From contig QPGO01000120.1 of assembly GCA_008632985.1 (NCBI GenBank), positions 186,001 through 249,059 on the forward strand: DNA of 63,059 nucleotides, given 5' to 3'. The notes beneath the pieces were generated by a model. That model had not been told where the DNA came from. It saw only the letters and a program-made list of their open reading frames with translations, and searched no databases. Positions 16,396 through 59,119 of the stretch are shown here, piece by piece. How positions within the stretch are numbered: the stretch's first letter is position 1; each line of letters begins with the position of its first letter. A program made the translations under genes and the position numbers. The DNA is from Psammoneis japonica. Taxonomy: Eukaryota.

Positions 16396-16399
16396 AGCA

Positions 16400-17949: not shown

Positions 17950-18800
17950 ATCCTGCCTTGAAGAGAGCTGCTCTCACAGTCTCCTGGGCTGCCCCCCTTG
18001 AGTCACGACAAAACCCAGCACATGTTGCCATCAATGACTGCAATGCTCTCACATTGCAGACTGTGGCCACAATGGCGCCAGCTGTGTGCTGACCAATGCC
18101 TGGCAATTTCTCCAATTTGGTGACAGTGGAGGGGATTTCACCACTGAGTTTGTTGAAGACATGCTTTGCCACCTCATGGAGGGGAGCCATGCACTCAGCG
18201 ACAAAAGCCCAGTCCACTCCAGTGTGTGCTGGCCTCCTTGGCACTGGCATTGGTGAGATCCTGGACAGTGGGGAATCTGTTCATCCACTTGCACCAGCAC
18301 AGAATCATGGCCTCCACTTGAGTCTGTTGCAGCATGATGATTTCACTTGCCCAAATGCCTCGGGCTGTGTCCACGGGGCTGTGTTGTTTTCTCGGCTCCG
18401 CGATGTCTCCTTTGTTGTTGTCTTCCTGCAATTGTGTTTCCTCTTTCTTTGTTTTTTTTGTGCAAAGCACTTGCTCATTGTTGTTTGCTTTGGTTTCTTC
18501 TTCTGTTGCCTCTCAGCATGGACGACCACAAAGTTGGCCACACACTTCCCTGCCAGGGAGGAGTGTCGCCGCCCCATGCCACGGCAGTTTGCACCAGCTT
18601 GCTTGATGCCATTGCAGTGGTTTCAACCAGATCTGCATTGCTTCTTGGCTGGAGAACCTGTGAAAATTCAAGCTGTTGTGCTTCGCCCATGATTCCAGAA
18701 AAGGCAGAGTTTTTCCTCCTCTGTCTCTCGGCATGGCTGCCAGTGTCTGCTGTCTGCTGCTGCAGAAGAAATTTTCATTGCCGCTCTGGGCATCATTTTC
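17950..18800 (-). pseudogene. MUTYH: MutY A/G-specific adenine glycosylase pseudogene fragment
   Basis: LQWHQASWCKLPWHG (cf. WY..NRRKLPWR), GIWASEIIMLQQTQV, RFPTVQDL, WSGLGFCR (cf. WAGLGYY.R) and HhH LPGIGQHTAGAI (cf. GIGPYTAGAI). Confidence 0.85.
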
Positions 18801-19106
18801 AAAGTGGATGAATGCCGGTAGCCAACAATGAATCCAACAGAGTGGTTGCCTTTGCTGGAGTCCTGCCTCAAGCAAAGGAGGGAAAGCCGTCTGTGAGGAG
18901 CACAACAGGTGTGCGCAGCGCACGCGACAACGGTCGACGCATGGACTCACGATGGAGAGTGGCGCGCGCCTCGCCGCGTGTGAGAGTGAAGTCAACGATG
19001 CGATATCGATCGACCGCGCATCTTTTTCCATTTTGCGACCCAGTCGTGTTGTCAAGAAGCACGGTGATTTGTGATCGAGATCCCCCAAGCCCATCTAAGC
19101 ACCAAC

Positions 19107-21690: not shown

Positions 21691-22113
21691 ATAAGTTGCA
21701 CAACACATGCATGCAGTTCATCATTTTCATGCCTAAATTCACCAACGGCAGGGCACGTATGCCGCTTTTTCCGTTTAAGCCTTAATGTAGAATTGTTTCT
21801 CGAAGCACATCAATCATGTGGGTTCTCTCTGTCCTTTTGGGGTGAAAGAACTTTGCAATTCCATGGCATTGAAGCGTGATGAATTACCCTCAAAAATCTC
21901 CGAGATGTGGAGGTTGGCTCAAGCGACTGATGAGATGAGGACTTGCTTGCTTAAGGTTGGGGACATGTGGTCTTCTCTCCAACATTCTCGAACAATGTGT
22001 CACAACACAAGATGTTGTCATTGTGGTGCAACCCAATCCACATGTGCGCCAATGCAAGATTTTACAAAGCTTGCCACCCTTTTAGAACTTCACTGCTACA
22101 TCTTTGCCACCTT

Positions 22114-23083
22114 TGTGGAGGAGTCCTTGCTCCGGTTATCTTGTGGTGCAGAGACCATGAACAGAACAAAGCATCTCTGGCCACTGCTGCAACAGGAAGC
22201 AAGCCGCAGATGTTTTGCCCTGACCACCTTTTGCCAATGGTGCAAAATGCCAAAGCCTGGCAGCATTGTGCAAAAACAGCTGTTGTGTCTGGGTGCAATT
22301 GCCAAATGGTGTGCACCAGTGCCAAGAAAATTGTCACCGGCTGTGATGTGCAGATGCAACTTGTGCCACCCTCTTCATTCTTCATCCATTGGCTGCACAA
22401 GCTGAGGAGCAACTTGAAGCACATTTTTGACAGCATCTTGTGCAAGCAAGCAACTTGGACAGAAAACCATGCACCACAAGCTGCCAGAAAGCTTGTGAAT
22501 TGTGCATGTGCTTTGTTTGGAAATCTCTCAAGCAAAGCCATTTTTGCCCATGGAGACAAAATCCTGAAGCATCTCCACAAGCTTTCTTCAGAAAACCTGC
22601 ACCCAAGGCTCCTGTCTCCATCAGGCTTTTTTTCCAATGCACCCACAATGGCACATTGTTGCATGACTTGATCTTCAACAATGAGTCTGGTTGCTTTGCC
22701 TTGACCAAAAGATGCACAAAATCTTGGAAAAGATGTTGAAGGACAGCTCTCTCTCTCTCTCTCTCTTAATTGAATGAACAGAAAATTGGTGCAGCCAATT
22801 CTCTGTCAAATGTGACAAACAAGAAGATGCAAGCAGCCAATGTGGAGTGCTTGACAGGATTTTTGTCCAACTGTTTCAGTTGACAGCAGGCACAACAACA
22901 TCAGCTGAAGTCAGGAGAATGAAACTTTCATGGTGACTTCATCAGCGGCTGGCTGCTGTTGTTCATGTGGTTGAGGTTGTTGCACCAAAATGATCTGGGG
23001 GGCTGGGGGGGGGGGGGGGTGAGGGGCAGACTGAGGGCACGATTGCAATTTGAGTGGCTTGAATCATGCACTGCTTTCCACAT
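22114..23083 (+). repeat. Left copy of a ~1-kb direct repeat flanking the Penelope-like element (ankyrin-like fragment, (CT)n, hammerhead unit)
   Basis: Near-identical to 27837-28863, starting TGTGGAGGAGTCCT. Confidence 0.9.
22903..22950 (-). ncRNA. Type I hammerhead ribozyme-like motif (variant)
   Basis: Minus strand AGCCG-CUGAUGA-A-GU-CACC-AU-GAAA-GUU..GAC-UU-CAGCU. Confidence 0.55.
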
Positions 23084-23285
23084 GATCTCTCTCTTTCTCT
23101 CTCTCTCTTTCTCTGTGTTTTGGTCTCTCTTTCCATCTCTCTCTCTCTCTCGAATGAACGATCAAAATTGGCGAAGCCAATTTTCCGTCAAATGAGACAA
23201 ACAATGGCAATGCAAGCAGCCAAGGCAGAGCCACTTAATCGGATGTTTGTCCAACTGTTTCAGCAATGGCAGGCACAACAACGTT

Positions 23286-23333
23286 GGCCAAAGTCAGGAG
23301 AATGAGACTTTCGCGGTGGCTTCATCAGTGGCC
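23286..23333 (-). ncRNA. Type I hammerhead ribozyme in the PLE terminal repeat
   Basis: Minus strand GGCCA-CUGAUGA-A-GC-CACC-GC-GAAA-GUC-UCAUUCUCCU-GAC-UU-UGGCC. Stems I, II and III all pair. Confidence 0.7.
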
Positions 23334-26061
23334 GGCTGTTGTTGTTGACGTGCGGTGGGTGTTGTTGCATTAAAAAGATCCAAAGAAGGACAGACGGGTT
23401 GATTAAATTGATTCAATTCAAGTCAAGTTGTCCTCTCTCTCTCTCTCTCTCTCTCAGTGGCCTCCATGTTTGCAGTCCAACAGGATGAAACTGGGGGGCC
23501 ATGGGAGACTCGGAGCACATGGTGGGAAAGGAGATTTCCAAGATTGCAGGAGCGACTGTGACGAACAATCATGCAGTTGAGGCCGATGCATTGTCGGGCG
23601 TGATTTCGAAGGTTTGAGAGAGGTTGAGAGCAGGGAGGGTTGGCCATTGCACCTTTCCACAATTTCTGCAGTTCTCTGGATGGCGGGTTGTTTGGATGGT
23701 GAGGAAGGTGCAGGAAGACTGGGTTTGACTGGGGCTCTTCTGTTGTTCTGTCAGCATTGTCAAAGATGAGGTCATGTGCTTTTCGGAAGAGCAGTTGTAG
23801 TTTGCTGGGTTTGCAACCCCGGGCTTGCAGTCGAAGGCAGAGCAGGCTTGCTTTTGCTTTTGCGTTGGTGGTGTCGGAGCACAGGTTTTTAAAGCAGTGG
23901 AGCACACCCACAATGAGGCTGGTGAGTGCTCCAGGCGGGTGAGCTGAGTGAGGTGGGATGCACATGCACAGATTCATTTCTTTTTCGTAGAGGGTGGTGT
24001 GGATGTGGGGGCCTTGGAGCGAGATTGTCAGGTCCATGAAGTTAACTTGGTGGCTTTGCAGGCTCGTGATCCAAGCAATGTCAAAGTCATTCAGTCTGGA
24101 GGCAAATGCTTCCCAGGTGGCGGCATCAGTGGCAGTGTCAACAATGTGCCAAATGCCAAAGACGTCATCAACAAATCATTTGCAATGAAAAAGCTGGGAG
24201 CTAAACTCCTCCAGGAGCATGTCTTCGTGGAGTGCACAGTGTGAGGTGGCACATGGAGGGGCGGGTGGTGTGCCCATGGTGGCTCCGTTGCGCTGGTGCC
24301 AAGTGGTGTCTCCAAAGGTGAACACATTGTTTTCCATCACAATTTGGAGTGCTTTGATGAGGGCATCCATTGGCACGTCGTCACATTTGTGTTCATGACG
24401 TCAGAGGCAGGAGGCAATCAATCAAAATGCTTTTCTGGTGGGTGTGTTAGAGCAGCAGGCCTCGGCATTGGATGTGAAGAGGAGGCAATGCGATGGCACC
24501 TCCATTTGGACAAGTGCTTGTTTCAGGTCCAGGGAGCTCTTGAAGTGTGATCGTTGGCAGCAAGCAACTTTCTGGAGCTTGTCATCCACCCAGATGCCCA
24601 AGCCGTAGAGCAGGCTGCCGCTGGTGGAGACGATCGGTCGGGATCGGAGCGGAGGGGGCTTGTGCACCTTTAGAGCAAGGCAGAAGATGGGGAGTGGGTC
24701 TTTGTCAGTTTCAAGACAATGTTTCAGATGCTTGCGTTCCATCGGGGCAAGGCCAGTTTTGTGTGTCTTGAGCCAGTCATTGAGGAGGTTTTTGATGCGG
24801 TGTTCTTGGGTTCCAGCTTCAAACTCACTCAAAAATCGACACGTGTTGGCATCATTGAGATGATCGCGAAATGCCATCTTGATGCATTCGGTCTTTTTGA
24901 TGATGGCGGGCCCCAGGTTCTTGTTGCATTGGGCCATTGTGAAGTCGTCTTGTTTGTGAAGAAAGGCCAGGGCGTGTTGTTGGTGAGGCAGTGGGTTGGT
25001 TCTGCCGCGGCGTTTCACAAAGAGGTTGGTGACTTGTGATTTAAAAGTGGTGCATCGACAGGTGACAATGTTGGCAAGTTTCCAGGAAGGGGGGGTTCAG
25101 TTGGAACGGAGGCACATCCTGGGATTGCAATCTCCATCATCGTTGTTGACAGGTGCATTGGTGAAGTGATCTCGTTTGTCAAGGTCTTGTTTGAATCTTC
25201 CAAGTGCATGTTCTTGGATCTTGGAGGACTTCCCGTTGTTGGTGAAGTGTGGAGCAGGAACAAATTTCAAGCTGAGACCAAGCAGTGATTGGAGGTTCTT
25301 TGGTGGTTGTTTGGTGGTGGTGCAATCATGGAAGGCAAGGTGTGAAGGCCTGTCAAAGCAGCGCCAGGCAGGCATGTGTCGCAGGTGGGTGCAGGCATTG
25401 TGTCGGATTGTGTGAGATGGGTCGGCGATGAATCCGCATGTGTGATGGATTTGGCACTCTGTTGCCTCTAGTGCCTGTTCCGATTGTTGTTGGAGTGCTG
25501 CTGCTTCTTTTTCGATTGCTGTTTCGATTTGGAGTGGCGGCGACTGTTTTTGTTTGCGCTTGTGGTGTCGTTGTCGGCATCGTCAGCTTCGCCGTCACGT
25601 TGAGCACGTTGTTTCTTCACATGAGCCGATGAGGCACCTTTGCCCTTTTCTTTTTGTGATGAGGCACAGGCGGTGTAGTTTCGGCCCCTCGGGTTGTTTG
25701 ACTGCTGTGCTTTGATGGACTTGAGGCATTGAGCAAGCGTGCTGACCTGTTGGGAGAGTTTTTTGGCATTTTTCTCGGTCTCCTTGCGGATGAGCTCTTG
25801 GAGGGTGGGAGGGTCGACTGCAGCTTTGCCATCAATTTCCATGTTTGTGCTCTCGGCAGCCTTGGCATCGAAGTGTTCCTTGTTGAGTTTCTTCAATTGG
25901 AGGCTGATGTCGTGTTTTCTGTTTGGATGCCAGGCAGTCAGTCCAGGGAGACACGAAGATGCATTCAAGCGCCCGGAAGATCTTGCTGAGTTCAGTCTCG
26001 ATTTTCTGTTGCGCAGCGGTGATTTGTGGAGCGGCGGGTGCTGGTGCCATTTCTTGTGCAA

Positions 26062-26349
26062 GACGTGTTCCAGCTGCACGCGAACCAAATCGTGCGCAAA
26101 AACGACATTTGCGCGATTTTTGCACGGTCCCCAACTTGCGATCGAACTTTCACCACCAAAAGCATGGATTTGTGCAAACACAAACAATGTTTTGCAACAC
26201 CAACAAGACTCGTGTGAGTGTTGCAATGTCGCTGTTGTTGTCAAATCTTTTGAGCATTTCATGTCAAAATGCTCCATGCACTAAAACACACACAAGCTGC
26301 ACTCAAAATCGATCATCGTTTTGTGCATCACCTGGGACTGGAACACGTC
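26062..26349 (+). mobile_element. MITE (288 bp) nested in PLE ORF1
   Basis: TIRs GACGTGTTCCAG...CTGGAACACGTC. Flanks GCAA / GTAA form a 4-bp TSD with one TA>CA change. Confidence 0.9.
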
Positions 26350-26490
26350 GTAAGGAACAAGGAGTCACTGGCTCAGTCGTCTTGAGTTTGAGACTGTCGA
26401 GCAGTTGGAGCAACCAGCGGTTGCGGCAGGTCAGCAACAGCATTTGCTGTCTTGCACTTGGTGAGAAACACGTTGAGGTTCTCGACCTTG

Positions 26491-26936
26491 TGCAATGTGC
26501 AGCCACTGATGAGAGTCAATGTATCACGGCGACGTGTTACAGCCTTTAAATGTCACAAAGGGCGTGACAAAAATAACCTTTTGTCTGCATGCATGCTGCG
26601 TTGTGAATTCACAGCGGAGTGGCACATCGTAACCACCAGGCAGGAGGCCAGGGGTTCGAAACCCGAGTGGGAGTTGTCTGCAGCAACGTTGATCACTGTC
26701 GAACGCGTAAAACTCTGTGCAGTTCTGTGTGTTCCTTCGTACGTACCCACACTGTTCCGCCAAAACCGTGCAGTGTCAGCACACGTTAGTAAAGAGCCGC
26801 ATGGACGCGTGATGCATGGGGAGGAGTGCAACATGCAGCTGCCAATGAGAGTCAATGCATCACGGCGACGTGTTGCAGCCTTTAAATGTCACAAAGGGCG
26901 TGACAAAAATGACCTTTTGTCTGCATGCATGCTGCA
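26491..26936 (+). mobile_element. TRIM (miniature non-autonomous LTR element) nested in PLE ORF1
   Basis: 110-bp LTRs at 26491-26600 and 26827-26936 (TG...CA). Polypurine tract GGGGAGGAG before the 3' LTR. CTTG TSD on both sides. Confidence 0.9.
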
Positions 26937-27656
26937 CTTGATGTGCTTTGGCAGCATTTCATTTCAGCGGTCAAGCAGGGTGACCACTGCGGTGTTGACA
27001 GGTGTGGTGATGCTGTCGGCCACAGCAAAGCTTTCAGTTGTGAGTCGGATGGCTTTCGTGCAGGACTCCAAAATTTCTTCTTGGATGACGTTGAGTTCAA
27101 TCCTGGTGGCTTGGACAACTTGCTTTTTGAAGGCTTTTTGGTTGGCAGAGATGAGGTCATTGGTTTCCTCCTGCAGAGCCAAAAACTCCTGGCTCTGTTC
27201 AGCGGTTTTCGACATTTGGAATTTGAAATTGATTCGGGCTGAGCGGGGGATGAACTCTTCATCGCTTTCCATTCATTGGACATGAAAGGCCTTGTCATGG
27301 GCCTTGGCTTGCAGTTGGATTTGGTTGATGGCAAGCTTCTCGAGGATGGTGGCCATTTCTGGTTGGAGCGACATGATGTGGTCCCCGATGCATTGGGTGG
27401 CGGTGGCAAGGGGTGTCCTTGTTTGCTGGTTGGCTGGGTTCACCGCAGTCGAATCGAAGCGCGTGTGTTTTGGGTTGGTGGTCTCGGTCGCAGCATCCAC
27501 TGTTGTCTTTGTGCTCTCTCTCTCTCGAACAATCAAAATTGGCAAAGCCAATTTTCCGTCAAATGTGACAAACAATGGCAACGCAAGCAGCCAAGGCAGA
27601 GCCACTCAATCGGACATTTGTCCAACCATTTCAGCAACAGCAGGCACAACAACGTT

Positions 27657-27704
27657 GGCCAAAGTCAGGAGAATGAGACTTTCGCGGTGGCTTCATCAGT
27701 GGCC
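27657..27704 (-). ncRNA. Type I hammerhead ribozyme in the PLE terminal repeat
   Basis: Identical core and stems to 23286-23333. Confidence 0.7.
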
Positions 27705-27800
27705 GGCTGTTGTTGTCAACTTGCAGCGGGCATTGTTGCATTAAAAAGATCCAAAGAAGGACAGATGGGTTGACTAAATTGGTTCAGTTCAAGTCAAGTT

Positions 27801-27836
<36 letters not shown>

Positions 27837-27840
<4 letters not shown>

Positions 27841-28863
27841 GAGGAGTCCTCGCTCCGGTTGTCTTGTGGTGCAGAGACCATGAACAGAACAAAGCATCTC
27901 TGGCCACTGCTGCAACAGGAAGCAAGCCGCAGATGTTTTGCCCTGACCACCTTTTGCCAATGGTGCAAAATGCCAAAGCCTGGCAGCATTGTGCAAAACA
28001 GCTGTTGTGTCTGGGTGCAATTGCCAAATGGTGTGCACCAGCGCCAAGCAATTGTCGCCGGCTGTGATGTGCAGATGCAACTTGTGCCACCCTCTTCATT
28101 CTTCATCCACTGGCTGCGCAAGCTGAGGAGCAACTTGAAGCATGTTTTTGACAGCATCTTGTGCAAGCAAGCAACTTGGACAGAAAACCATGCACCACAA
28201 GCTGCCAGAAAGCTTGTGAATTGTGCGTGTGCTTTGTTTGGAAATCTCTCAAGCAAAGCCATTTTTGCCCATGGAGACAAAATCCTGAAGCATCTCCACA
28301 AGCTTTCTTTAGAAAACATGAGAACAAGAAGCCATTTGCTTGCTGCAATGATGACAGCATGTTCTGAAAGTCCTCATCCTGAGTGACATCTGCACCCAAG
28401 GCTCCTGTCTCCATCAGGCTTTTGTTCCAATGCACCCACAATGGCACATCGTTGCATGACTTGATCTTCAACAATGAGTCTGGTTGCTTTGCCTTGACCA
28501 AAAGTTGCACAAAATCTTGGAAAAGATGTTGAAGGACAGCTCTCTCACTCTCTCTCTCTCTCAATTGAATGAACAGAAAATTGGTGCAGCCAATTCTCTG
28601 TCAAATGTGACAAACAAGAAGATGCAAGCAGCCAATGTGGAGTGCTTGACAGGATTTTTGTCCAACTGTTTCAGTTGACAGCAGGCACAACAACATCAGC
28701 TGAAGTCAGGAGAATGAAACTTTCATGGTGACTTCATCAGCGGCTGGCTGCTGTTGTTCATGTGGTTGAGGTTGTTGCACTAAAATGATCCAGGGGGTGA
28801 GGGGCAGACTGAGGGCACGACATTGCAATTTGAGTGGCTTGAATCATGCACTGCTCTCCACAT
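27837..28863 (+). repeat. Right copy of the ~1-kb direct repeat
   Basis: Matches 22114-23083 and includes a hammerhead variant at 28698-28745. Confidence 0.9.
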
Positions 28864-29211
28864 CTCTCTCTCTCTCTCTCGCTCTCTTGGTTGATTGAAC
28901 AAATGAGTTGGCACAGCTGATTTTCCATCAAATTGACCAACAAAGAACAAAGAGTGGCTGAGGCTGGAGCCACCATTTTGGATGTTCACCCACCTGTTCA
29001 GCAAGTGGCAGGCACAACAGCATTGACTGAAGTCAGGAGTGAGACTTTTGCAGTGGCCAGCTGCTGTTGTCAACGTGTGGTGGTTGAAGCTCTTTTGTGT
29101 TAAAAAGATCCAAGGTGAGTGCAGCTGTCACTGTGGGGAGGACAGATGGGTGGATTTGAGTGACTGGTTTTCAGATCAGCAGCAGGTTGGTTTCTCTCTC
29201 TTTCTGTGTGT

Positions 29212-29244
<33 letters not shown>

Positions 29245-29246
<2 letters not shown>

Positions 29247-30170
29247 GCAGTGGCCTCCCTGTTTTTTGCAATCTGGCAGAACAAATCTGGGGGGGGCATT
29301 GGAGATTCAAAGCTTGTGGCATGACAGCAAGTTCCCAAGAATGTGTGCATGGCTGCAGCATGCAATCTTGCGGTCTGGGCCAATGCATCGTCGTGTGCAG
29401 TTGCGAAGGTGGGAGAGTGGTTGTGAGTGGGGAGGGTGGGACACAGCGCCTTTCCAAATTTTTTTAAGTTCACTTGAAGGTGGGTCATTTGGATGAAAGG
29501 GCATGTGGAGAAAGATTGGGTTGGACTGGGGTGCTGCTGCTGCTCTGGCTGCATTTCCAAAAATCAGGTTGCACGCTTTTTGGAAAACTGGTTGCAAGTG
29601 GTTGGGTTTGCATCAATTCCATGGGCTTGCAGGCAACTGCACAGCAGCTTCATCTTGGTTCAAGCATCATGCAGATCAGAGCAAAGGTTTTGAATTGGAG
29701 CAGCGTGCCCATGATGAGACCAGTGAGTGGCTGCTCCAGGCGGGTGGGGGCTGAGCAAGATGGAAGAATGTGCAGACATGAGCTCATCTCCTTTTTGCAG
29801 AGTGCAGTGTGGAGTTGTGAGTCTTAAAGAGAAATGGTCAGGTCCACAAAGTTGACTCAGCTGGATCTGGGGCTGGTGTGACCCAGGTGATGTCAAAGTC
29901 ATTTGGCCTGGAGGTGAAGGCTTCCTGGTGGGTGGCACTGGCAGCAGCATTGGTGATTTTCCAGATGCCAAGTGCATCATCTGCAAAACATTTTGGTGTC
30001 CCTTTCCATCTCTCTCTCTCTCTCTCTCTTTCAGTGGCCTCTCTGACTGCAGCCTGGCAGGATGAAACTGGGGGGCCATGGGAGATGATGCATCTGGAAA
30101 ATGTTGATGTCTGAGTGGAAAGATTGGCAAAAGCATCAGTTGTTTGCATTGTTGCCCAAGCTCCATGCAC
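29245..30170 (-). mobile_element. Two 5'-truncated Penelope-like 3' fragments (about 29247-30005 and 30031-30170), each abutting (CT)n
   Basis: FADDALGIW, PIFLHMPFHPNDPPSSELKKIWK and LGNLLS. Both start (TC)n..CAGTGGCCTC, as at 23455. Confidence 0.8.
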
Positions 30171-31004
30171 TCACCAACTCAGTTCCTGCCTCTCTCTTGC
30201 CTTGTGTTCCAGTGCGCTGTCCCCCCCCCCCCCCCTGATGCTCTTCTGTTGCCTTCCCTTGCTGCTGATGTCATTGTCATGACATTTTACGAGCCTTGTG
30301 CATTGCATTTTGTGTCTTGTGAGGAAATGTTGTTTGGTGTTTTTGCAGCAATGTTGAGCCTGTCTGCCTGGTGATTTCTTTCAGCATCACTTTTTGGGTG
30401 ACAATTTTGTTTTAAAATTCCATGCTCACATTTGGTTTTGAAGGTTTGAATGATTTGAAATGACTTGATGAATCATCCAGTCATTGAGGTTCTGCACGTG
30501 TGTCTGCAGTCGGTCAATTTCTCATTTCTCATCGTGTCAATGTTTCTTGTTGAGGGGGGTCATCCCCCAGTTTTTAGCTCGCATTTTGCAAAAAAGGCTC
30601 GTGTTCTAAAACTGTCATCTTGAGCATGTGCGTGATGCGGACCAGCACTCGTGCATGCCATGAAAACGCGTCATGTGTTTGATTGTAAAGCTCTGTAGTG
30701 TGGTGGTCTCTGCTGCAGCTAGCGGAGCAGAACAGAGTGCTGCATCGCTGCATCCAGACACTTTCACATCGGTGCTCATTCTAGCCAAGTTTGTGCAAAC
30801 CTTTCTGTCATGACTCAGTCCTCACGAAAACTGGTTCGATCTCACACAAGATGAGTGCTTCAAGTTCCAACAATGCCAAGTCCACACAAGAAGAAATTCT
30901 GGCTGCCATCAGATCTTCGAGATGTTGTCGTTGAATCAGGTGTGGACAGCCGTGTGTCTGCAGACAACTTCAGTCACGTGCTTGGCGACATGTGTTGAGA
31001 TGGG

Positions 31005-33317
31005 TTGGTGGCTTGTGTGCCTTGGAAGAAACGTCTTTACCATTGCTTGGATGCCTCGACCTCGGAGGCTCCAAAAGATCAGAATCTCAAATTGATGCCT
31101 CCTTCGAACACGGAGTTCACATCAGCCAGTGACGACGGTGCAGATGCAGTCAAGAAAATTGCTGCAGAGCTTGATGCCATCAGCAAGGAAGGCAACAAGG
31201 AAAATGATGATCCATCAAAAAACAACTTGCCAATTGATTTTGAAAAGTTGATGCTGGACGGAATGAGAATGGTTGGAAACCATCAATTTGGCCTCTTTGC
31301 ACATTGGAGCTTCAATCGCTGCAAGCATTGCAAAAGCAAGAACATCATGTCTGCCAACATTGAGATCTTCAAATTCAAGAAGGACGGATTTGGCTCAGTT
31401 GATTGTCGTTGCTGCACCGGCTGCAAGGAAAACCATTCTTTTCATGCGTGTGAAGAATTGAAAATGCCGTTGGTGGCAAAAGGGAAGAAATGCTCTTGCA
31501 AACAGCTTGTGGCAAATGTCTTGATGCCAGCCAGTCTAAAGTGTGCTGGCATCAATCCTGCCAAAGCAATTGAGTTTTTTGGCGAGGCTGGTCTGATGGT
31601 GCCAACAGAAAGAAACCTCAGAAAGGAAATGGAAAAGACACACACGGCATTGCCAGCAGAGATGCAGTCAACAGCAATTGAAAATCAAAGACGGGTTGTT
31701 GCCGCTGTGAGATCTTCCCCTGATTTCAAAGAGGAGGTCAACACAATCCAGTGGGTGGGGAAGGATGGTGTCCAAAACAAGACCATTTCTGTTGCTGCAA
31801 TGATGGATGCTGCCGGTGTGACTCGCTCTTACAACAACTGCACCACAGGCACTCAGCTTGGTGCTGCATTGACATCCCATGTTCTAGATTTGCCAATGGC
31901 AGTTGGTGCATCACGAACATCTTGCATGAAATGCTGTCATGCAATGCATGACGCGATGTGAAATGGTGAGAAGAATCCTTCGCTTTTTGTCAGAAAGCAC
32001 AAAGGTGAGTGCATGAGCAATTCCATGGATGGCCCGGCAGTGGCAGAGGAATTTGTGCTTGAGAAGTTTGGATGGGACCCACCACCAGACAAGGATGGTG
32101 CATGTCTGGGGGATGATGTTGCTTTGCATGTTGATTGGACAGGGGCCGATGGAGATTCTAAGGGCCACAACCGTTTGTCACGGAAACAAGTTGAGATCAT
32201 TGGTGACAAAGCCGCAGGTTGGTGTCAAAAGCTCCCGTGTTCTTCTCACACAGGAAAAAATTTAACCAAGGCTTTCTTTCAATTGAGAGACAGCAACCCG
32301 AGCTTTCGTGGAGTGGGTGGTCTTGAAAATGCTCGTGTGGCCGCTGTGTCGAGCGACATCAAAAAATGTCTCAAAGAACTGAACGCTGCAACATGGGAAA
32401 AGGGTGCCGAACCAACAAAGGAGCAAATGCTTGACACTGAAAGGAAAATGTTGAATGTTTTCCCTCATCACATGGGGGGCCATTCGGGCTGCATGGACTC
32501 AGAGCATTGTGGCTTTATAAAAACAAAGTTGGGATGCGGGCACACGCTTGAGGAGCAACTCACGAAAGAACGAGAAGAGGAATTGTGCAAAGAGATGACA
32601 AAAAAGGGACATTCTTGCTTCGACTGCAGCTTGGAGCTTAACGATGAAGGTCCACAGAGAGTGATGAGAGAAATCTCTTTGAGATGCAATGACAAGAGCA
32701 TCCTGGGATTGTCCAAGTGCCTCACTGCCAACCAAGTTGAGTCACTTTGGGCACAGGTGACAAAGCAATCTGAGGGAAAGCGCCTCAATCAAAACTGTTC
32801 CGACATGTGGGAAATTGCCGTCGGCTTGGCAGTGCTTGCGAAATCAAATCTAAGCAAGTGCAAAAAAACATTGTTCAATGATCTTGGCTTGGAAGAGTCT
32901 GGGGAACAGAGGAAGTTTTGACTGCGGCATGAGAACAGGCGTCAGAAGAAACTGGCTGTGAAAGCAACCGAATCTTACAAAAATGGCCACCGCAGGAGCA
33001 AAATCGTAAAGCAGGCCTGTGGCAGGAAGCCGAAAGAATCACACAAGTGCAAGCCAGAAAAGGTCAAACCAGGTGAGGACGCAACATTGAAACGCAAGAG
33101 AAAAAATGGGCCATGCCAGAATTGTTCCGGCGAGGGTCACACTGCAGGAAAATGCAACATGCCGAAGAAGCACAAGCAAGATGACCTTTTGCTTGATTCT
33201 GTTTGGTTCGACGGCTGTGACAAGAGTCAGCTTGTGTTGCAAGCAGGTCCCGAGCAAGTGGTTGTTCCATGTGTGATGAGCAGCAGCGGTGCCCGCACAA
33301 GCAGTTCTTCTGAATGA
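31005..33317 (+). pseudogene. Kolobok-type DDE transposase with C-terminal zinc knuckle, interrupted by stops
   Basis: MDAAGVTRSYNN, GADGDSKG, KLPCSSHTGK, HHMGGHSGC...HC, TANQVESLW and CQNCSGEGHTAGKC. Confidence 0.75.
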
Positions 33318-33349
33318 TGAGCAGCAGTGGCAGTGGCAGTTTTGTTGTC

Positions 33350-34700
33350 TCATCGCAAGCAGGCGCCGAACAAGCAGTCAGCTGTTCCAAACAATGATTG
33401 CCAGTGGCAGTGTTGGTGTCTTTTGAAATCCTGAAATTCTGTGCATGGCTTGTCTGGAGCATTTGGCCATGACATTCGAATCACAGACACAAGGCACTCT
33501 GGCAACTCTTTTCGATTCCCAGCACCCTTGACAAAATGCATGTTTGTCACAAACCAACAATGCAACAGATTCCTTCTCAATTGGTTGTCCATTTTCTCGA
33601 CATCATGGTCAACAAAACAACATTGCTCTGAAATGGACTCCAGAAACTCAAGGGACTGTGCCTTCTGTTGATGCTGTTCTGCAACACAAAAATGAAACCA
33701 CTGCCCATGTTTGGAGCAAAGCCGGCCACCACGATGGCAAAAGAGGTGGCCACCCTCAGGCAGCTTCCTCACATCATCTCGCTCCTGAAACGCTTTGATT
33801 TGATGGTGCAACAGAGTGACTGGGTTTTCAAGAGCACAGAGATGGGCAGGATTGGGATGCAGCACGAGCTCATTCCCCTCTTTTTGTTCTTGTGCGGTCG
33901 CATGCGACAGTCCCTGCGAGTCAACGTCAACAAGCGGGCGACAAAGGAGTTCATGTTGCACAATTGCAGTGCCAATTTTTGAAACATCACTTGCACTGTC
34001 TGAAGGCAATGATCAGTCCTTGTGCCGTGTGGGCGCAAACATTTTCAGCTTTGTGATGGGTTGGCCAGTCGTCAGTTGCATCTTCACTGGATGCAGCAGG
34101 TTCGTCACCGGTGCGCCGAGACAAGTTTTTGATGAACCATCCCACAATTCCAAGTGAGCTCGTCGCATGCTTTGATTTGTTTTTTTGTCATGTCCAGACC
34201 CTTCAAATTCAATGCTTGACAAGAGAACCCTTGCAGCTGGCTCGAAACAGTTTTCTGCAATGTCAGATTCTGACATCAGTGCCTGAAAGAATCCACTCGA
34301 CAGTTCCAGGATAGACTGAATGGTTGGAGACCTGTCTTGAGAGTCTGTCAATGGCGAGTCATTGTCTGCCATTGGAAACTTGTCACTGTGGCTCTTGGTG
34401 CAGGCAACAAACTGACGCAACTCGGAACATGAATCAGAAGTCCAGCAGTCCGCGTCACTTCTGGCTCGCAGCAAAACCGCTGAAAGCATCTTCTTCTCAG
34501 ACGCTTGAACCTTGTCACATCTCCTCTCAGCCTTTTCATCCTGTGTCTTGAGTTTCTTGTGTCGCTTCTTTGTGTTGTTGCCTGAACGTGGTTCGTCAAG
34601 AAAAAGAAAAAGCAGCAGGCTGTGAGAGCATGCTGTGGTTGCATCAATGCGTGTCAACATGCATCGACTGTTCTCAGTGATGCAGTCTTCCGCCATGAGA
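33350..34700 (-). pseudogene. KolX accessory protein (P2X7 C-terminal/nanor-like domain)
   Basis: RRNLLHCWF...GAGNRKELPECLVSVIRMSWPNAPDKPCTEF matches the R..AY..F...LG..NR..LP.CVV..IR..FP....YTGF pattern once Tyr>His/Cys is reverted. Confidence 0.7.
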
Positions 34701-34907
34701 CCATTGCATCATGTCGATCATTTGTCATCTGGAGAAGATGCTTTTGATGCAAGTCGGACGGCAGCAACCCTCCGTTGCACTCACCTGGCTTGTCCGAAGT
34801 CGCCATGGTTGCCATGTTGCAAGTGCGGCGAGTGCTGTTTTTGGCAGAAAATCACGAGCTACATTGTCCAAATTCGAGCTAAAAAAGTAGAGACTGACCA
34901 CCCTTAA

Positions 34908-35307
34908 GACGCGTTCCAGCTCTAGCAGGTGGGACCTCGCACTGCTGAACTGTGACATCAACAGTTTTTTGGATCGCGTCGCATGTCGCGCACGCACATT
35001 TCTGCGTGTGACATTCTACGAAATTGTTTCATGCTCCCTGTTTTGCGAAGCCAAAGGCTTTCTATTTTCAACATTTGTGAGAATGAAAATGCGCTGGGTG
35101 TGTTGTTTAATGTCCACAGAATGTGCCCGGGCAAACTGTCAATGATGCACTGCAAGCATGAAGGAGGAGATGCGTTCGTAAAACAGCCTCTTTTTCTGTT
35201 GGCAATCATTTGTGTTTTCATTGCAGTGTAAATTTACTGCGGAGCTCGCACGTAGAATTCCATGGGCCCAATGTCACACGGAGTCCCACCCAGGACTGGA
35301 ACCCGTC
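34908..35307 (+). mobile_element. MITE (400 bp), GAC...GTC family
   Basis: TIRs GACGCGTTCCAG..GGTGGGAC / GTCCCACC..CTGGAACCCGTC. TTAA TSD shared with the Kolobok right end. Confidence 0.92.
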
Positions 35308-35310
35308 TTA

Positions 35311-36300
35311 AAATGCAAATTTTCACAGTCTTGCTGTGCAGGTGGAGCTGGCAAATCTCAAGCTCAATCTCAGCCACAAGAGCCTGGCAGCAGGAGCCCT
35401 CTCATTTTTCATCATGTTGATGTGTTCTTGTTAAGATGCAAATTTGCACAGTCCTGCTGTGCAGGTGGAGCTGACAAATCTCAAGCTCAATCTCAGCCAC
35501 AAGAGTGCAGCAGCAGGAGCCCTCAGAGAAACCAAGGCTGTGCTGCCGCAGCTGCTGCAGCGCCAGCTGATGGTCCCAACCCAGCAACTGCTGCCACTGC
35601 TGATGCCTCCACAATGACAAAGCCGCTGCCCACCATGCCAATGCGGGCCCGCACCACTCTCCAGCCATTGCAACCAAAAATCTTGAATTTCTCATGTGTT
35701 GGCACAAAATTCCTGCGACTCTTGTTGTTGCATGCCCTGGCACCCAATGGAGTCTCCCACAGCCATCCCAAGACAACTGGTCACTTGCACTGTCACACAG
35801 ATGGCTCCATGGTCTCTGCAGCACAGGTGTGTTGGCTGGGCCAAAGAAGCCCCCAGTCATGTCAGAAAGAAAAGGTGCCACACAATTGACACAAGACAAG
35901 GCCTTCTTTGCTCCCCAACCAAGGTTGTTGTTGGCTCTCCTGGGACACAATGGAATCACCCAAGGCCAGCAAAAGATGTCTGGGCACTTGTGCTGTCACA
36001 CAGAAAGCTCCCTTGCCTCTGCAGGTCAGGGGTGGCTGGGGGGCACCACAGCAAGCCGATCACATCAGAAAGAAAAGGGGATGCATCAGCTCAAGACAAG
36101 GCTTTTCCTTTCCAACCATCATTGTTGTTGCCTCCTCCCAGACCCAACAGAGTCTCTTGTGCCCACCTCCAGACAACTGAGTGCTTGCACCATCACACAG
36201 ATGGCTCCCTTGTCTTTCTTGCAGGTTGAGCCACCAAAAGCCATCCCAAGACAATGGAGTGCTTGCACTGTCACACAGATGGTTCACTTGTCTTTGCAGG
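35311..36300 (+). repeat. Degenerate local direct repeats
   Basis: A ~90-bp unit ATGCAAATTT..GGTGGAGCTG..CAGGAGCCCT at ~35312 and ~35436. A CCCAAGACAA..CTTGCACTGTCACACAGATGG-like unit near 35766, 35980, 36168 and 36245. Confidence 0.75.
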
Positions 36301-38149
36301 TTGGCTGGTGCCTCCACACCTTGTGCAGCTGGGCATCTTCTTGTGTGGAGGATTCATGCAAGGGGCTGCTGCTGCTGCTGCCCAAGACAAGGCTTGCAGC
36401 TTTCAAAATCAAGAGTGCAAAGACACCACAGTTGGGCCAAGAACCCACTCAACAAATGCAGGTGGAGTGCATTCTTTGGGGTCCATGTCATGATGCAGGT
36501 GGCAGCAACTCAAGACAATGTGCATTGGTGGTGATGATGATGATCTGGGCCACCACCACATGCTCCATTTTAGTTTCTCAAGTGGCGCTGGCCTGTGCAT
36601 CATGCACCATCTACCCGGCAAGCTTGTTGCTCCAACTGGAGACACCAGCAAGACATGTCATCAAACTCACCACCAGAGTGAACCCCTTGGAACTGAGGAT
36701 GTGTGGCTGATGAACTCTGGCCATTGTTTTCATTTGTGGCAATGGCAAGAGGGAAGAAGATGAGACATTCTTCCCAGTCTCTGTCGCATGGCAATGGCTT
36801 TCCAAGCAGTGGCGCCATTGCTTGCTTTGTGAGATGCAAAGACCATGCCTTGGCAAGTTTAAATTGGCTGGCTTTGGCAGAGAGCAGCAAGCTGACAGAG
36901 GCGGCATGACACCCAACTGCAGTGCTCAGCAGAAATCCAACAGCAAATGGACAAAAATGATGGACGGCAATTGCAAACCAGGTCCAGCACAGGACAGTTG
37001 AGCATGAAAAAGTGAGAAGATGTGGCATCACACTTCATCACATGGAAGTTGCACAAGTGCTTTTTTCACCATGGTCTTTTCCAAGATGGATCTCAGTCTC
37101 TAAATGCATGCTCTGCTCTTCCTCGTCTTTGTCACCAACAGCTCCATGTCACCACATTCCAGAACAAGATTTGCAAGCCATTTCCTGGGCAACCCTCAAT
37201 TCTGCAGACAAGCTTGCCAGGCCATGGTCTTCCAAAATTTTTGTGCCAGACAGTCTGCATTGGTTTGCTTGACTGTGCAAGCAAGTCCAAAACAGCCACA
37301 AGTTGTTCATCAATGGCCCGACACACAGCTGAGCAATCATTGAGCAACAAACAACAAAGAAAGAGACGGCCACACAAACTTGCTTTGAAAAACAAACAAA
37401 CAAAAGCTTGCCTGCATCCATCACTTTTGCCCCCCCCCCCCATCCACATTTCAAATCCAACAGCATCAAACATGACAACCGTTTCCAAAAATGTTCTTTC
37501 CAAAGGAAGAGCAACTTCTTAAAAAGTGGCCCCTGAATCCAAGCAACAGGCATTGCTGCAACAATGTGCTGCCACACCATCAATGGTGCTGCACTCTCTG
37601 TTGATTCTGATGCAACAAATGAGCACAGCCAGTGACATGAGTTGGTGTGCAACAATGCCAATGCATTGCATGAAATGTGTTGAGCCACAAATGACAAATG
37701 CAACTTGCTTTGGCCCTGAAACAAAAGCTCGCCTGCATCTCTTTTGCCCCCCTCCCACAATTCAAAGCATGGTTCACAGCTGCAATGTCTTGAGCAGTGG
37801 AACAACAGAGCAACACTTTGAATGCAGCCAAGTTGCTGCAGCAGAAGAAGCAGCAACAACAGGAAGCACATCATTGAAATCAAAAATGCAGTTGGACAAG
37901 AACGGAAGACATCACCTGCCACGGCGATTCTGTCACAATGGCAAAGACAATCACCACATCATTGCAGCTGTTGGCATCAATGTGGTGTGTGGTGTGGTGT
38001 GAAAAAATGTGCATCTGCTGACCGCGAGTTGAGCCACGCAGGTGTCAACAACTTGAAAAGGGAAAAAATGATCAAATTGTTTGACTCAATGTTTGCAAAA
38101 ATGATGCACAATTGACAACTGCGCAAATTGAAGATCGGTGAACAGAGTT

Positions 38150-39150
38150 AGTGCGTGTGCAACAATTTTGTTTGTCAACAAGTTTCATTCTTGACAAGCA
38201 CTGAAACATGTTGCAGACAAAAGTTGTGGCATGCAAGCAAATTTCTGAGGTGCCATCTCATGTGCAAGCAACTGCAGCAGACAATCATGCAATTGAGTCC
38301 AACACATTGTTGTGCATGGTTGCTGAGGTTTGAGAGGGGTTTGTGAGGGGGGGTCAGCCATTGTTTGACAAGAGTGTGCAAAACCGCACCTTGTTCTCCA
38401 GAAGATGACCCATGTGTGCACTGCAAGTGAGAACTTGACAAGCTCAGCTGGGCCACTGTGTGTGTCAACCCACCGTCAGGGGGTGTTTCAAAGTCACTGC
38501 TTTGCACCGTGAGGTCAAAACATTGAGGAACACACAAAACACTTTCTTGTCCTCCAGAAGATGAGCCATGAGTTGCCCACAATAAAGTGGTTTTGTTGTC
38601 CATTGAAAGCAAGAATTTGACAAGCTCAGCTGAGCCACCACACCTCAAAAACAGGCCGTTGTGCTCTGGATGATTGTGTTGAGAAACATGTTGAGGCACA
38701 TCTTGTTGCTTGTCCTGCTGGAGTGGCAAGTTTTGATGACATTGACAAGAGGATGAAGCTTGCAAAATGCACGGTTCATGAGTGCAAGTCAAGATCCACC
38801 ATCCCACTCCAGAGTCAAGTGCAAAGTTTTGGAGCACACAAAGCTTTTTGTGGAAGGGGCTCTCCCCAAAACATGGGCTTTGACCAAGTGCTGTGTGGAT
38901 GTCCACCAATCACAAAAAGTGATTGTCCCATGTTTGAGCCAGTTTGTTTCATGTGCAGGTTTTTGCTCTACAATGTGGGAAGTGATGGACCCCCATTGCC
39001 ATTGTCGCTCGTTTTGGGCTGCTGGCAAATTCAATGTCATCATCTCCTGCAGCTCTGTCTTTGCACACACATCTCTTGGAGAGCACAAGAACTGCAAATG
39101 CCAAGTCTTCAGATTTCTTTGGTTTCTCTCATGTCTGGACCAATGGTGGT
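38150..39150 (-). mobile_element. Older Penelope-like RT remnant interrupted by another repeat (38380-38650, similar to 17560-17720)
   Basis: PPHKPLSNLSNHAQQCVGLNCMIVCCS..LRNLLA matches the C-terminus of the element at 23480-23650. Confidence 0.6.
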
Positions 39151-39649
39151 GCAATTGAGATTGGAGGAGTGATGAAGTGATGGTGAGCATGTGGTTGGCA
39201 CCGGCGCCATTTTGCCCTCTTCCTTTGGTGCTGCTGGTGGCTGGCTGCGATGATGTGACAACAATGGAGCACTTGACATGAATGGTTGCCATTGTCTTTA
39301 CATTGCGCTTTTGTCTTTGAAATAGATTGCTTCAGAGACCAGAAGAAGCAGATGATGTGTTGTTTGCGCTTCCTCTTCCTGCAACACCCACACGAACTCA
39401 CTCGAGAGTAGAGAGCAAACACACAGACGTTCGTCGCGCAACTCGCGCGATGCCACGTCACGACTGCTCGTGCAACATAACCCGTTAGAAGAGTTCGGAG
39501 GTTCGAGTTCGAGCCGACGAGCAACGGTGGAGATCGATTGGAAATGAGGAGATGAGTGAGGATCGCGACGGCATATTTTCCATTGACTCTATCCAGTATA
39601 CTCATCTCTTGTCGATACTAAAGCCATAAGTTACACTGGTTATACAAAA

Positions 39650-59090: not shown

Positions 59091-59119
59091 GGTTGACAAC
59101 AAAACAATCCGATGCAAAG

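Follow-up and report, generated by a model that had tools for sequence, protein, structure and literature searches.

TpA-depleted transposon islands in the diatom Psammoneis japonica and their likeness to the TpA hypermutation of Bigelowiella natans

Known processes that mutate repeats and mobile DNA

Repeat-induced point mutation (RIP) of fungi turns C into T, mainly at CpA, which creates TpA and lowers the G+C content. The islands described here, from the diatom Psammoneis japonica, resemble its products in that repeats and transposons were irreversibly hypermutated by transitions over whole domains, with their reading frames wrecked, but TpA is lost in favour of CpA and TpG while the G+C content stays at 0.49; moreover, a TA-rich repeat copy survives amid TA-poor DNA. 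The decay of CpG through deamination of 5-methylcytosine (5mC), as in methylated transposons, accounts for a second set of changes here (CG>TG/CA; one copy has lost 26 of 30 sites), but 5mC deamination is unable to remove TpA, the loss of which is faster (see below). In animals, APOBEC and ADAR enzymes act on single-stranded cDNA or RNA, with a bias towards one strand, and leave DNA transposons untouched, while ADAR, like TadA, favours a U or T immediately 5' of the edited A. Their editing of retroelements offers a likeness, as a deaminase-driven crippling of mobile elements, but in P. japonica the changes fall on both strands and extend to DNA elements. Finally, in dinoflagellates, another algal lineage of the SAR supergroup, 5-hydroxymethyluracil (5hmU) marks transposable elements and prefers TpA, with TC as a further target (PMC11572971), which makes it a conceivable chemical source of T>C; the passages of that article considered here report no mutational consequence, and TC, targeted there, is undepleted in P. 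japonica.

A TA-specific process has been reported only once before, as far as we found, in an unrelated alga and on integrated viruses: the preprint of Mettrop et al. (2026; bioRxiv 10.64898/2026.01.13.699255) describes de novo TpA>TpG/CpA hypermutation in Bigelowiella natans. According to its main text, Illumina sequencing of mutation-accumulation lines revealed 231 mutations in two integrated viral regions, of which 230 were A>G or T>C. These all fell at TpA, and their rate was about 6e-7 per site per generation (1000-fold above background); the process switches on and off between lines. The genome further holds 124 TpA-poor, CpA+TpG-rich clusters enriched in reverse-transcriptase (RT) and DDE domains (cut-off: TpA ≤0.43, against 0.45 in the hypermutable giant-virus region). 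As far as this account goes, the P. japonica islands share with it the A:T>G:C change at TpA, on both strands and within discrete domains of foreign DNA, as well as a TpA-poor, CpA+TpG-rich footprint with RT and transposase domains. They differ in the host, a diatom (stramenopile) instead of a chlorarachniophyte (rhizarian); in the identified targets, transposons instead of giant-virus and virophage inserts; in the depth of depletion, which is near saturation (observed/expected ratio, o/e, of 0.05, against 0.45 in the giant-virus region); in a co-located depletion of CpG; and in a dependence on flanking bases, of which we found none in the main text of the preprint. Moreover, the rate in B. 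natans was measured de novo, whereas the diatom process is known from its footprint in an assembly.

Since the signatures match, we view the islands as extending a just-described process to a new lineage, at saturation: they are probably transposon graveyards that underwent a domain-confined, DNA-level TpA>TpG/CpA mutation, accompanied by CpG decay, with the same signature as in B. natans. The novelty implied by an earlier sequence-only reading of this DNA is thereby reduced: our literature search found nothing on TpA hypermutation in diatoms, but the signature itself had already been measured de novo in B. natans.

TA-depleted islands and their contents

The whole evidence base is a single assembly window of 63,059 nt (P. 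japonica, assembly GCA_008632985.1, contig QPGO01000120.1, positions 186,001–249,059 of the forward strand), within which all coordinates below are given. Our segmentation of this window delineates ten sharply bounded islands, amounting to 25,740 bp (25.7 of 63 kb) and holding 76 TA, while the 37,319 bp outside hold 1174, a density 10.7-fold that of the islands. The TA o/e is 0.05 in the islands and 0.48 outside, so that the sequence-only reading was right to call TpA almost absent from transposon islands; its manual count of about 9 TA in 35320–39280 is exactly 9 upon recounting. Across 21800–39300, 85 TA are observed for 1144 predicted from base composition (o/e 0.074), whereas 200 mononucleotide shuffles gave a mean of 1145 and a minimum of 1075. 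The depletion is genuine and its effect very large. TG and CA are correspondingly high (o/e 1.65 and 1.77 in islands vs. 1.25 and 1.24 outside), the G+C content is unaltered at about 0.49, and neither ApA (AA o/e 1.29 vs. 1.17 outside) nor TC and GA (o/e 1.05 and 0.99 in islands) are depleted. The loss of CpG, to which the sequence-only reading gave no emphasis, coincides with that of TA (CG o/e 0.36 in islands vs. 0.98 outside), which suggests that the islands may be silenced DNA. Nevertheless, TA is also lost where CpG is not, at 25501–26500 (TA o/e 0.05, CG 0.87) and 51001–52000 (0.16 and 0.96); with TpA consumed and G+C at 0.49, this agrees with the earlier claim that the process is distinct from both RIP and 5mC decay. 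Part of the TG and CA excess is ordinary CpG decay.

Island borders are resolved within 100–200 bp and adjoin genes, which in this window are long, intact open reading frames (ORFs). From left to right, the islands lie at 4976–5723 (3 TA, o/e 0.06; CG o/e 0.40); at 9607–10907 (8 TA, o/e 0.08), absent from the list of the sequence-only reading; at 14191–19089 (9 TA, o/e 0.03; CG o/e 0.28), with a MutY/Nth-type remnant and a copy of the repeat found at 8715–9283; at 22153–26347 (16 TA, o/e 0.06) and 26941–30496, which carry copies 1 and 2 of a retroelement, the latter frameshifted; at 30808–34723, where a protein match reveals a relative of Mutator-like transposases; at 35430–39286, the most extreme (9 TA, o/e 0.036; CG 0.16; TG 1.98; CA 1.80), with internal repeats at 35722–36215; at 46763–47842, around the most decayed copy of an inverted-repeat (MITE-like) element; at 53505–54768 (3 TA, o/e 0.04); and at 59081–60004, where not a single TA is left in 924 bp. 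We read the islands as graveyards of transposable elements, in which two copies of an RT-like retroelement, a Mutator-like DNA transposon and small inverted-repeat elements lie together with further repeats and the remains of a MutY-like gene.

An RT-like ORF of retroelement copy 1 (23081–25702, minus strand) spans 874 codons in one frame, with no frameshift but 9 in-frame TGA. When compared with its relatives (7310 homologs), it has lost all 14 conserved Tyr, of which 9 are now Cys, 4 His and 1 Phe, in line with the Tyr to Cys or His replacements noticed earlier, and 5 of 12 conserved Arg have become Cys, Gln, His or a TGA stop. Its composition is shifted to the same effect (Tyr 0.32% vs. 4.14% in relatives; Cys 5.1% vs. 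1.4%; His 6.1% vs. 3.3%). Three of the peptides cited by the sequence-only reading were located, each on the minus strand (GQHTAG at 18077–18094, NLCMCIPP at 23951–23974 and PCTEF at 33434–33448), while two of its labels stand in part: the Penelope-like element belongs to an RT-like family, but RVT_1 matches are weak and limited to 3 of 31 members, and the MutY gene, a decayed HhH-GPD remnant in two frames at about 17.9–18.4 kb (minus strand), has weak Pfam support (HhH-GPD E 6.5e-6 and 2.2e-5; HHH 6.7e-4). The Mutator-like transposase relative (30999–32918, plus strand), with one in-frame TGA, shows 32% identity over 348 aa to P0272 (Pfam PF20700).

In all 79 metagenome loci encoding RT-like relatives, the TA o/e ranges from 0.44 to 0.98, and no protein among the 150 best relatives is Tyr-poor (minimum Tyr 2.28%). 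The composition of the islands is therefore not native, and the possibility, raised by the sequence-only reading itself, of transposon consensus sequences naturally free of TA finds no echo in these relatives. Since neither the 79 loci nor the 150 proteins bear the TpA signature, the process is not visibly widespread among them, although the presence of Tyr in one of three patterns used biases the search toward intact copies.

Direction, context and timing of the changes

The repeat at 8715–9283 (plus strand), normal in both TA and CpG, is related to the island repeats at 16401–16951, 22111–22599 and 27834–28320, and was used as a stand-in for their state before mutation. Its 15 TA correspond in 16401–16951 to 1 TA, 6 TG, 7 CA and 1 CG, and its 30 CG to 4 CG, 15 TG and 11 CA, whereas its TG and CA are nearly all kept (at 26 of 28 and 31 of 32 sites). 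Likewise, the 22 TA of the MITE-like copy at 53009 compared with that at 52072 yield 5 TA, 10 TG and 7 CA, with 18 of 22 CG kept. Across both comparisons, a double change to CG affects 1 of 37 TA. The changes TA>TG/CA and CG>TG/CA run in one direction only, which argues for mutation rather than native composition. Among 66 derived states, drawn from few repeat families and thus not mutually independent, 30 are TG and 36 CA; in these copies, the loss of TA is strand-symmetric and separable from CpG decay. When four pairs are pooled, A>G occurs at 59 of 195 TpA, 35 of 273 ApA, 27 of 195 CpA and 20 of 202 GpA, rates that assume the TA-rich copy to be ancestral and whose high background is due to the inclusion of poorly aligned stretches. 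Altogether, the ancestral-state comparisons and the protein relatives support the central claim of the sequence-only reading, i.e., a directional, strand-symmetric and domain-restricted TpA>TpG/CpA change of transposon DNA. Since the damage extends beyond an RT-like element to a Mutator-like transposon, to MITE-like elements and to the remnant of a gene, the action is at the DNA level and not on RNA intermediates.

The bases around TA matter as well. TTAA accounts for 25 of the 76 TA surviving in islands vs. 59 of 1174 outside (Fisher p 8e-13), whereas GTAC, ATAC and GTAT are absent from islands vs. 258 occurrences outside. The surviving fraction of TA is about 0.61 with TAA on both strands, 0.12 with TAA on a single strand and 0.04 with TAA on neither; of 28 sites with TAY on one strand and TAR on the other, 21 were changed on the TAY strand (p 0.013). 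These figures indicate that TAY is lost fastest and that TTAA is spared, a preference that equally fits an enzyme acting on the T of R-T-A in the opposite strand.

Four MITE-like copies document a graded, time-like build-up of the changes: 53009–53397 (plus strand, 389 bp; 29 TA, 28 CG), 52072–52461 (minus strand; 11 TA, 24 CG), 34908–35307 (minus strand, 400 bp, between islands; 8 TA, 21 CG) and 47036–47432 (3 TA, 14 CG). From these two series, TA decays about 3–6 times faster than CpG. The second copy sits in a zone (about 51.0–52.5 kb) of low TA (o/e 0.16–0.19) and near-normal CpG, while the first, flanked by only 4 TA in 1200 bp (2 × 600 bp), is read as a young insertion yet to be mutated; its persistence among TA-poor DNA implies that duplication alone is no trigger. 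The retroelement bodies at 28390–29993 and 22597–24181, about 78% identical, disagree at 40 sites, where one reads TG and the other CA, and several ancestral sites of the MITE-like copies behave likewise, so that copies were mutated independently. In contrast, 27834–28320 and 22111–22599 (97% identity) have nearly all outcomes in common (57 TG, 50 CA, 1 discordant), meaning that most of their conversion predates that duplication, which the simple picture of a hit after each insertion does not account for.

Candidate agents

Under our preferred explanation, elements would be struck after insertion by a DNA-level mutation process restricted to the island domains, in which A:T pairs of TpA would become G:C (TA>TG or TA>CA according to the strand struck), with CpG>TpG/CpA decay of the ordinary kind running in parallel, up to near saturation (95% of TA lost, over 99% in some contexts). 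We tentatively suggest that the agent might be an enzyme deaminating adenine in DNA, on either strand and preferably in 5'-T-A-Y-3', recruited to methylated or silenced chromatin; the candidate chemistry would be the conversion of A to inosine, read as G at the following replication. Against this suggestion, our analysis identified no gene for a deaminase or for another effector. If so, this would be a genome defence that irreversibly ruins Tyr codons and other TA-bearing codons.

Alternatively, though we judge it rather unlikely, a TET/JBP-type dioxygenase acting within transposon chromatin could oxidize thymine at TpA to 5hmU and then 5-formyluracil, with mispairing with G during replication or misrepair leading to T>C, much as 5mC drives CpG decay. 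The flank effect is blind to this distinction, R-T-A on one strand being T-A-Y on the other, and the co-location of TA and CpG losses suggests a modification-rich chromatin state. Yet 5hmU is weakly miscoding, and we know of none in diatoms. The dinoflagellate base, made by a TET/JBP enzyme and lying mostly on transposable elements, prefers TA and TC (PMC11572971), but TC and GA keep their expected frequencies in the islands. A repair bias seems improbable: at methylated DNA, a glycosylase or endonuclease specific for T:G mismatches would turn replication-error T:G at TpA into C:G, a parallel to the very-short-patch repair to which the scarcity of CTAG in E. coli has been attributed. It does predict TA>CA/TG on both strands, in methylated domains only and with flank dependence, but CpG should then be protected, contrary to its depletion in islands, and the 1000-fold elevated, on/off rate reported in the B. 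natans preprint (bioRxiv 10.64898/2026.01.13.699255) better fits an induced activity than a constitutive one.

The confinement to domains, reminiscent of a chromatin mark, could also betray a sequencing or assembly artefact in which true TA and CG carry modifications that a long-read basecaller reports as transitions, a known class of nanopore errors; we consider this slightly less probable still. TA being palindromic, a symmetric modification would cause opposite miscalls on the two strands, hence a consensus should not convert over 99% of sites, as the complete lack of GTAC, ATAC and GTAT would demand, and TA>CG doubles should be frequent instead of nearly missing. Nor would one expect an unmutated element between TA-poor flanks, a four-copy gradient along which TA and CG fall together, genes with long intact ORFs or the same signature in Illumina reads of B. 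natans (bioRxiv 10.64898/2026.01.13.699255). Pol-eta-type patch repair, an error-prone process of WA>WG specificity put forward by the sequence-only reading, includes A>G after T within its motif but is contradicted by the undepleted ApA and its lower A>G rate, which makes it very improbable. Just as improbable are native composition, selection against TA and an editing of retroelement RNA that precedes its reverse transcription. UpA is indeed avoided in many RNAs, but the relatives are TA-normal, and with conserved Tyr destroyed and in-frame TGA, function was not preserved. ADAR-type editing does favour a 5' U (as cited in bioRxiv 10.64898/2026.01.13.699255), but both strands are struck in P. 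japonica, and so are the relative of a DNA transposon, the MITE-like elements and non-coding repeats.

Extent and content of the TA-depleted islands

The observed/expected ratio (o/e) of TA per 1-kb window is 0.35–0.70 in genic DNA and 0.00–0.12 in a series of discrete blocks. Segmentation of the window delimits ten such islands (4976–5723, 9607–10907, 14191–19089, 22153–26347, 26941–30496, 30808–34723, 35430–39286, 46763–47842, 53505–54768 and 59081–60004), which hold 76 TA in a total of 25,740 bp (o/e 0.05), compared to 1174 TA in the 37,319 bp outside (o/e 0.48). Over 21800–39300, 85 TA are counted, compared to 1144 expected from base composition and to a minimum of 1075 among 200 shuffles. 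The sequence-only reading had listed the islands correctly, except that it missed 9607–10907, and the 9 TA that it counted in 35320–39280 are exact. CpG is also depleted in the islands (o/e: 0.36 vs. 0.98 outside), while TG and CA are in excess (o/e: 1.65/1.77 vs. 1.25/1.24), with an identical G+C content (0.49) inside and outside and an about conserved total of pyrimidine–purine steps per context. Island edges are 100–200 bp wide and adjoin gene starts or ends. Genic DNA outside the islands is itself rather low in TA (o/e 0.48), related elements in metagenomes ranging from 0.44 to 0.98; in this one window, such a low value may reflect a weak genome-wide leakage of the process behind the islands.

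The neighbouring host genes are spared. The inter-island genes are of eukaryotic type and encode, among others, a GEN1-like XPG nuclease with chromodomains, Tpt1, a porin, an alpha-kinase, PEP carboxylase and MRS2. No protein in the collection exceeds 71% identity to the PEP carboxylase, whose named top matches are all diatoms (Odontella, Trieres, Ditylum, Thalassiosira and others), and the source is accordingly treated as a diatom. The GEN1-like ORF (65–3667, plus strand, 1201 codons; XPG_N, XPG_I and two Chromo_2 domains) features a 1-kb in-frame tandem duplication (1520–2513 and 2513–3503, 91% identity). Another ORF of 795 codons (19068–21452, plus strand), with a 2OG-Fe(II) oxygenase domain, an F-box and a weak actin-like region, starts at the exact edge of the island 14191–19089 and has no TET/JBP match.

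When stop-to-stop ORFs of at least 120 aa were scanned with Pfam, 11 of the 14 flanking gene ORFs were matched, compared to none of the 39 ORFs in 21.8–39.6 kb and none of the 24 ORFs of the other islands (0/63 in total). Such a lack of matches is to be expected after the rewriting of Tyr, many Arg and other residues. Moreover, since TAA and TAG stops (1.6 and 0.7 per kb in the islands vs. 7.3 and 6.6 outside) and Tyr codons are almost absent, many long false ORFs are open on both strands and Pfam-based transposon annotation is evaded, so that the islands can mislead gene prediction and transposon annotation alike.

The identified content of the islands consists of reverse transcriptase (RT)-like, Mutator-like and MITE-like elements. 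The RT-like ORF (23081–25702, minus strand) is a single frame of 874 codons, devoid of frameshift and interrupted by 9 TGA, while a second, frameshifted copy of the retroelement lies at 27.8–30.1 kb. Its family (~640 aa) is very large and lacks a dedicated Pfam model: RVT_1 weakly matches 3 of 31 members (best E-value 6.6e-5), no Pfam model matches either the island ORF or three of its close relatives, and a profile of the family retrieved no relative among PDB sequences. We call this element RT-like, the Penelope-like label of the sequence-only reading being a putative one based on motifs. Short segments related to each other, with (CT)n/(GA)n runs translated as SLSL or ERER, flank the retroelement copies (~23100–23400, 27500–27800, 28550–28800 and 22750–23000) and may be pseudo-LTRs or tandem junctions. 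At 30999–32918 (plus strand), the island sequence encodes a putative relative of a Mutator-like transposase (32% identity over 348 aa, E-value 2e-43, to the protein P0272); PF20700 (Mutator-like transposase) matches P0272 (6.8e-24), but no Pfam model matches the ORF of the island. The MITE-like family (~400 bp, terminal inverted repeats) is represented by four copies at differing stages of TA loss (34908–35307, 47036–47432, 52072–52461 and 53009–53397), two of which form an inverted pair ~550 bp apart. In the island 14191–19089, the remnant of a decayed HhH-GPD (MutY/Nth-type) DNA glycosylase gene (~17400–19094, minus strand, two frames, several TGA) may be a dead duplicate, a transposon-captured gene or the only copy of the species. 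Finally, no known element was recognised in the most extreme island (35430–39286).

Direction of the change

The repeat at 8715–9283 has a normal TA content and was used as a proxy for the unmutated state. Among its 15 TA aligned with the island relative 16401–16951, 1 is still TA, 6 have become TG, 7 CA and 1 CG, and 26 of its 30 CG are converted as well (15 TG, 11 CA and 4 CG), i.e., a decay of the 5mC type, while TG is unchanged at 26/28 sites and CA at 31/32. Similarly, between the MITE-like copies 53009–53397 and 52072–52461, 22 aligned TA correspond to 5 TA, 10 TG and 7 CA, with CG kept at 18/22 sites. When pooled, the TA of the TA-normal copies are TG or CA in 30/37 cases, kept in 6/37 and CG in 1/37.

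Proteins tell the same story. A 630-residue part of the RT-like ORF has 7310 homologs (E-value ≤ 1e-3) among 1.84 billion representatives, and its alignment with 30 full-length relatives features 14 columns in which at least 60% of the relatives have Tyr; not a single Tyr is left at these positions in the island ORF, which reads Cys at 9 of them, His at 4 and Phe at 1. Its overall composition is shifted accordingly (Tyr: 0.32% vs. 4.14% in relatives; Cys: 5.1% vs. 1.4%; His: 6.1% vs. 3.3%), and 5 of the 12 conserved Arg columns carry a change (Cys, Gln, His or a TGA stop), as predicted from CpG decay. None of the best 150 protein relatives is Tyr-poor (minimum 2.28%), nor is any of the 79 metagenome loci encoding relatives TA-poor (o/e 0.44–0.98), these loci having been retrieved with three search patterns, one of which contained Tyr and thus favours intact copies.

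Altogether, three independent lines of evidence (paralogous copies, proteins and normal relatives elsewhere) indicate that the TA depletion is mutational, so that the core of the sequence-only reading, a TpA>TpG/CpA mutation of transposon DNA, is borne out by both the copy comparisons and the protein relatives. The case that would have undermined it, a transposon consensus natively free of TA, is excluded by the same copies, proteins and Tyr-normal and TA-normal relatives, which likewise dismiss native composition or selection as an explanation.

Sequence context, strands and tempo

The process operates on DNA, is specific to TpA, sensitive to flanking bases, active on both strands and confined to domains. 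With TA-rich copies taken as ancestors, and with a background inflated by poorly aligned stretches, A>G occurred at 59/195 TpA, compared to 35/273 ApA, 27/195 CpA and 20/202 GpA (0.10–0.14 in these other contexts), and C>T at 53/229 CpG (0.09–0.11 elsewhere). Both strands are affected, with 30 TG and 36 CA among 66 derived states. The bodies of the two retroelement copies are discordant (TG vs. CA) at 40 sites, which means that they were altered independently, and the MITE-like copies also resolve the same ancestral TA differently. In contrast, two other island relatives of the TA-normal repeat, 27834–28320 and 22111–22599 (97% identical), have their outcomes in common (57 TG, 50 CA, 1 discordant), which implies a duplication or conversion later than most of the damage.

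TA loss is separable from CpG decay: windows with a TA o/e of at most 0.1 range from 0.05 to 0.87 in CG o/e, and the zone 51–52.5 kb combines a TA o/e of 0.16–0.19 with a CG o/e of 0.77–0.96. Across the four MITE-like copies, TA numbers 29, 11, 8 and 3 and CG 28, 24, 21 and 14, which corresponds, in log survival, to a TA loss ~3–6 times faster than that of CpG. The copy with 29 TA (53009–53397) sits between flanks holding 4 TA in 1200 bp and resembles a recent arrival in an old graveyard.

Surviving TA are not a random sample. Out of 76 in the islands, 25 are TTAA (Fisher p = 8e-13) and 19 CTAA or TTAG, while GTAC, ATAC and GTAT are absent from the islands (0 vs. 258 outside). Relative survival is ~0.61 when TAA is read on both strands, 0.12 on one strand and 0.04 on neither; TAC and TAT are lost fastest, TAG more slowly and TAA most slowly. 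At sites read as TAY on one strand and TAR on the other, it was the TAY strand that changed in 21/28 cases (p = 0.013, the sites being partly dependent), and the outcomes at Tyr codons (TAY), 9 Cys vs. 4 His, point in the same direction.

Known systems and candidate agents

Irreversible editing of invading DNA is well known in fungi (RIP) and animals (APOBEC, ADAR). Fungal RIP, however, is a C>T change at CpA that creates TpA and lowers G+C, while here the reverse is seen (TpA lost, CpA and TpG gained) at a constant G+C of 0.49. RIP is thus rejected and, as the sequence-only reading had argued, 5mC decay does not account for TpA loss either, since CpG decay covers only the CpG component. The Pol-eta candidate (WA>WG) of the sequence-only reading fails in turn: ApA is not depleted (AA o/e of 1.29 in the islands) and its A>G rate equals the background of CpA and GpA. 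GC-biased gene conversion is at odds with the unchanged G+C and the undepleted AT, AA and TT. ADAR-like RNA editing fixed by reverse transcription would confine A>G to the sense strand of retroelements, while both outcomes occur here (30 TG and 36 CA) and the changes extend to MITE-like elements and to a relative of DNA transposons.

The closest counterpart is found in Bigelowiella natans. According to a preprint (Mettrop et al., bioRxiv 10.64898/2026.01.13.699255), 231 of the 302 nuclear point mutations in 15 mutation-accumulation lines fell in two integrated viral regions, where 230/231 were A>G or T>C, all at TpA, with a rate of ~6e-7 per site and generation that exceeds the background ~1000-fold and is seen in some lines only; the genome also contains 124 clusters of TpA-poor and CpA+TpG-rich windows (cut-offs: TpA ≤ 0.43, CpA+TpG ≥ 1.52), enriched in reverse-transcriptase and DDE domains, and the agent put forward by the authors is an ADAT2-like DNA adenine deaminase (10.64898/2026.01.13.699255). 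Both cases share A:T>G:C transitions restricted to TpA (yielding TpG or CpA), a restriction to separate domains of mobile or foreign DNA that spares host genes, and a TpA loss coupled to a gain in CpA+TpG, the values observed here (0.05 and 1.65/1.77) being well past these cut-offs.

In a term search, the main text of the preprint mentions neither diatoms, nor stramenopiles, nor flanking bases, even if its supplementary tables may hold contexts, and no account of TpA loss in the transposons of diatoms was retrieved by our literature search. The novelty implied by the sequence-only reading is reduced, since the kind of process has already been described in B. natans (10.64898/2026.01.13.699255); what is new here is the diatom lineage, the transposon targets, the saturation and the flank rule. 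The TpA-specific A:T>G:C version of DNA editing having first been reported in 2026 from one alga, a saturated diatom footprint would place it in a second, ecologically dominant SAR lineage and would add transposons to viral inserts as targets. Moreover, the window offers natural "before and after" copies, and any candidate enzyme must reproduce the flank rule.

The tRNA adenosine deaminases work in a U-A-C anticodon context. This context and the agent proposed for B. natans lead us to favour, tentatively and at somewhat less than even chances, a deamination of adenine to inosine in a T-A-Y context. Methylated or silenced chromatin would be what targets the process, as the CpG depletion in the same places suggests. 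A bolder and rather doubtful extension is that of an old defence common to diatoms and chlorarachniophytes, which would edit double-stranded DNA. A TadA/ADAT-like enzyme, drawn to the methylated chromatin of transposons or viruses, would convert the A of 5'-T-A-Y-3' to inosine on either strand, and the flank rule would be its own sequence preference, in an echo of the tRNA substrate; in this diatom, the system would have run to completion, leaving TA-free "graveyards".

Adenine is not the only conceivable target, since T-A-Y reads as R-T-A on the opposite strand: the flank rule is equally compatible with T-directed and A-directed chemistry and cannot separate them. A route through thymine modification, which we deem unlikely, is suggested by dinoflagellates, whose transposable elements carry 5hmU preferentially at TA and TC (PNAS, PMC11572971), while a bias in T:G repair appears quite improbable. 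At face value, a modified base misread during sequencing might also mimic the loss of TA, yet indirect arguments make such an artefact quite improbable. If both strands of a palindromic site were modified, the miscalls on them would be opposite, which presumably could not reach >99% conversion, and many TA>CG doubles would be expected, compared to the single one seen among 37 sites. Moreover, an unmutated element is found inside a depleted domain, TA and CG fall together along the copy series, the window's genes are intact, and the same signature was measured with Illumina reads in B. natans.
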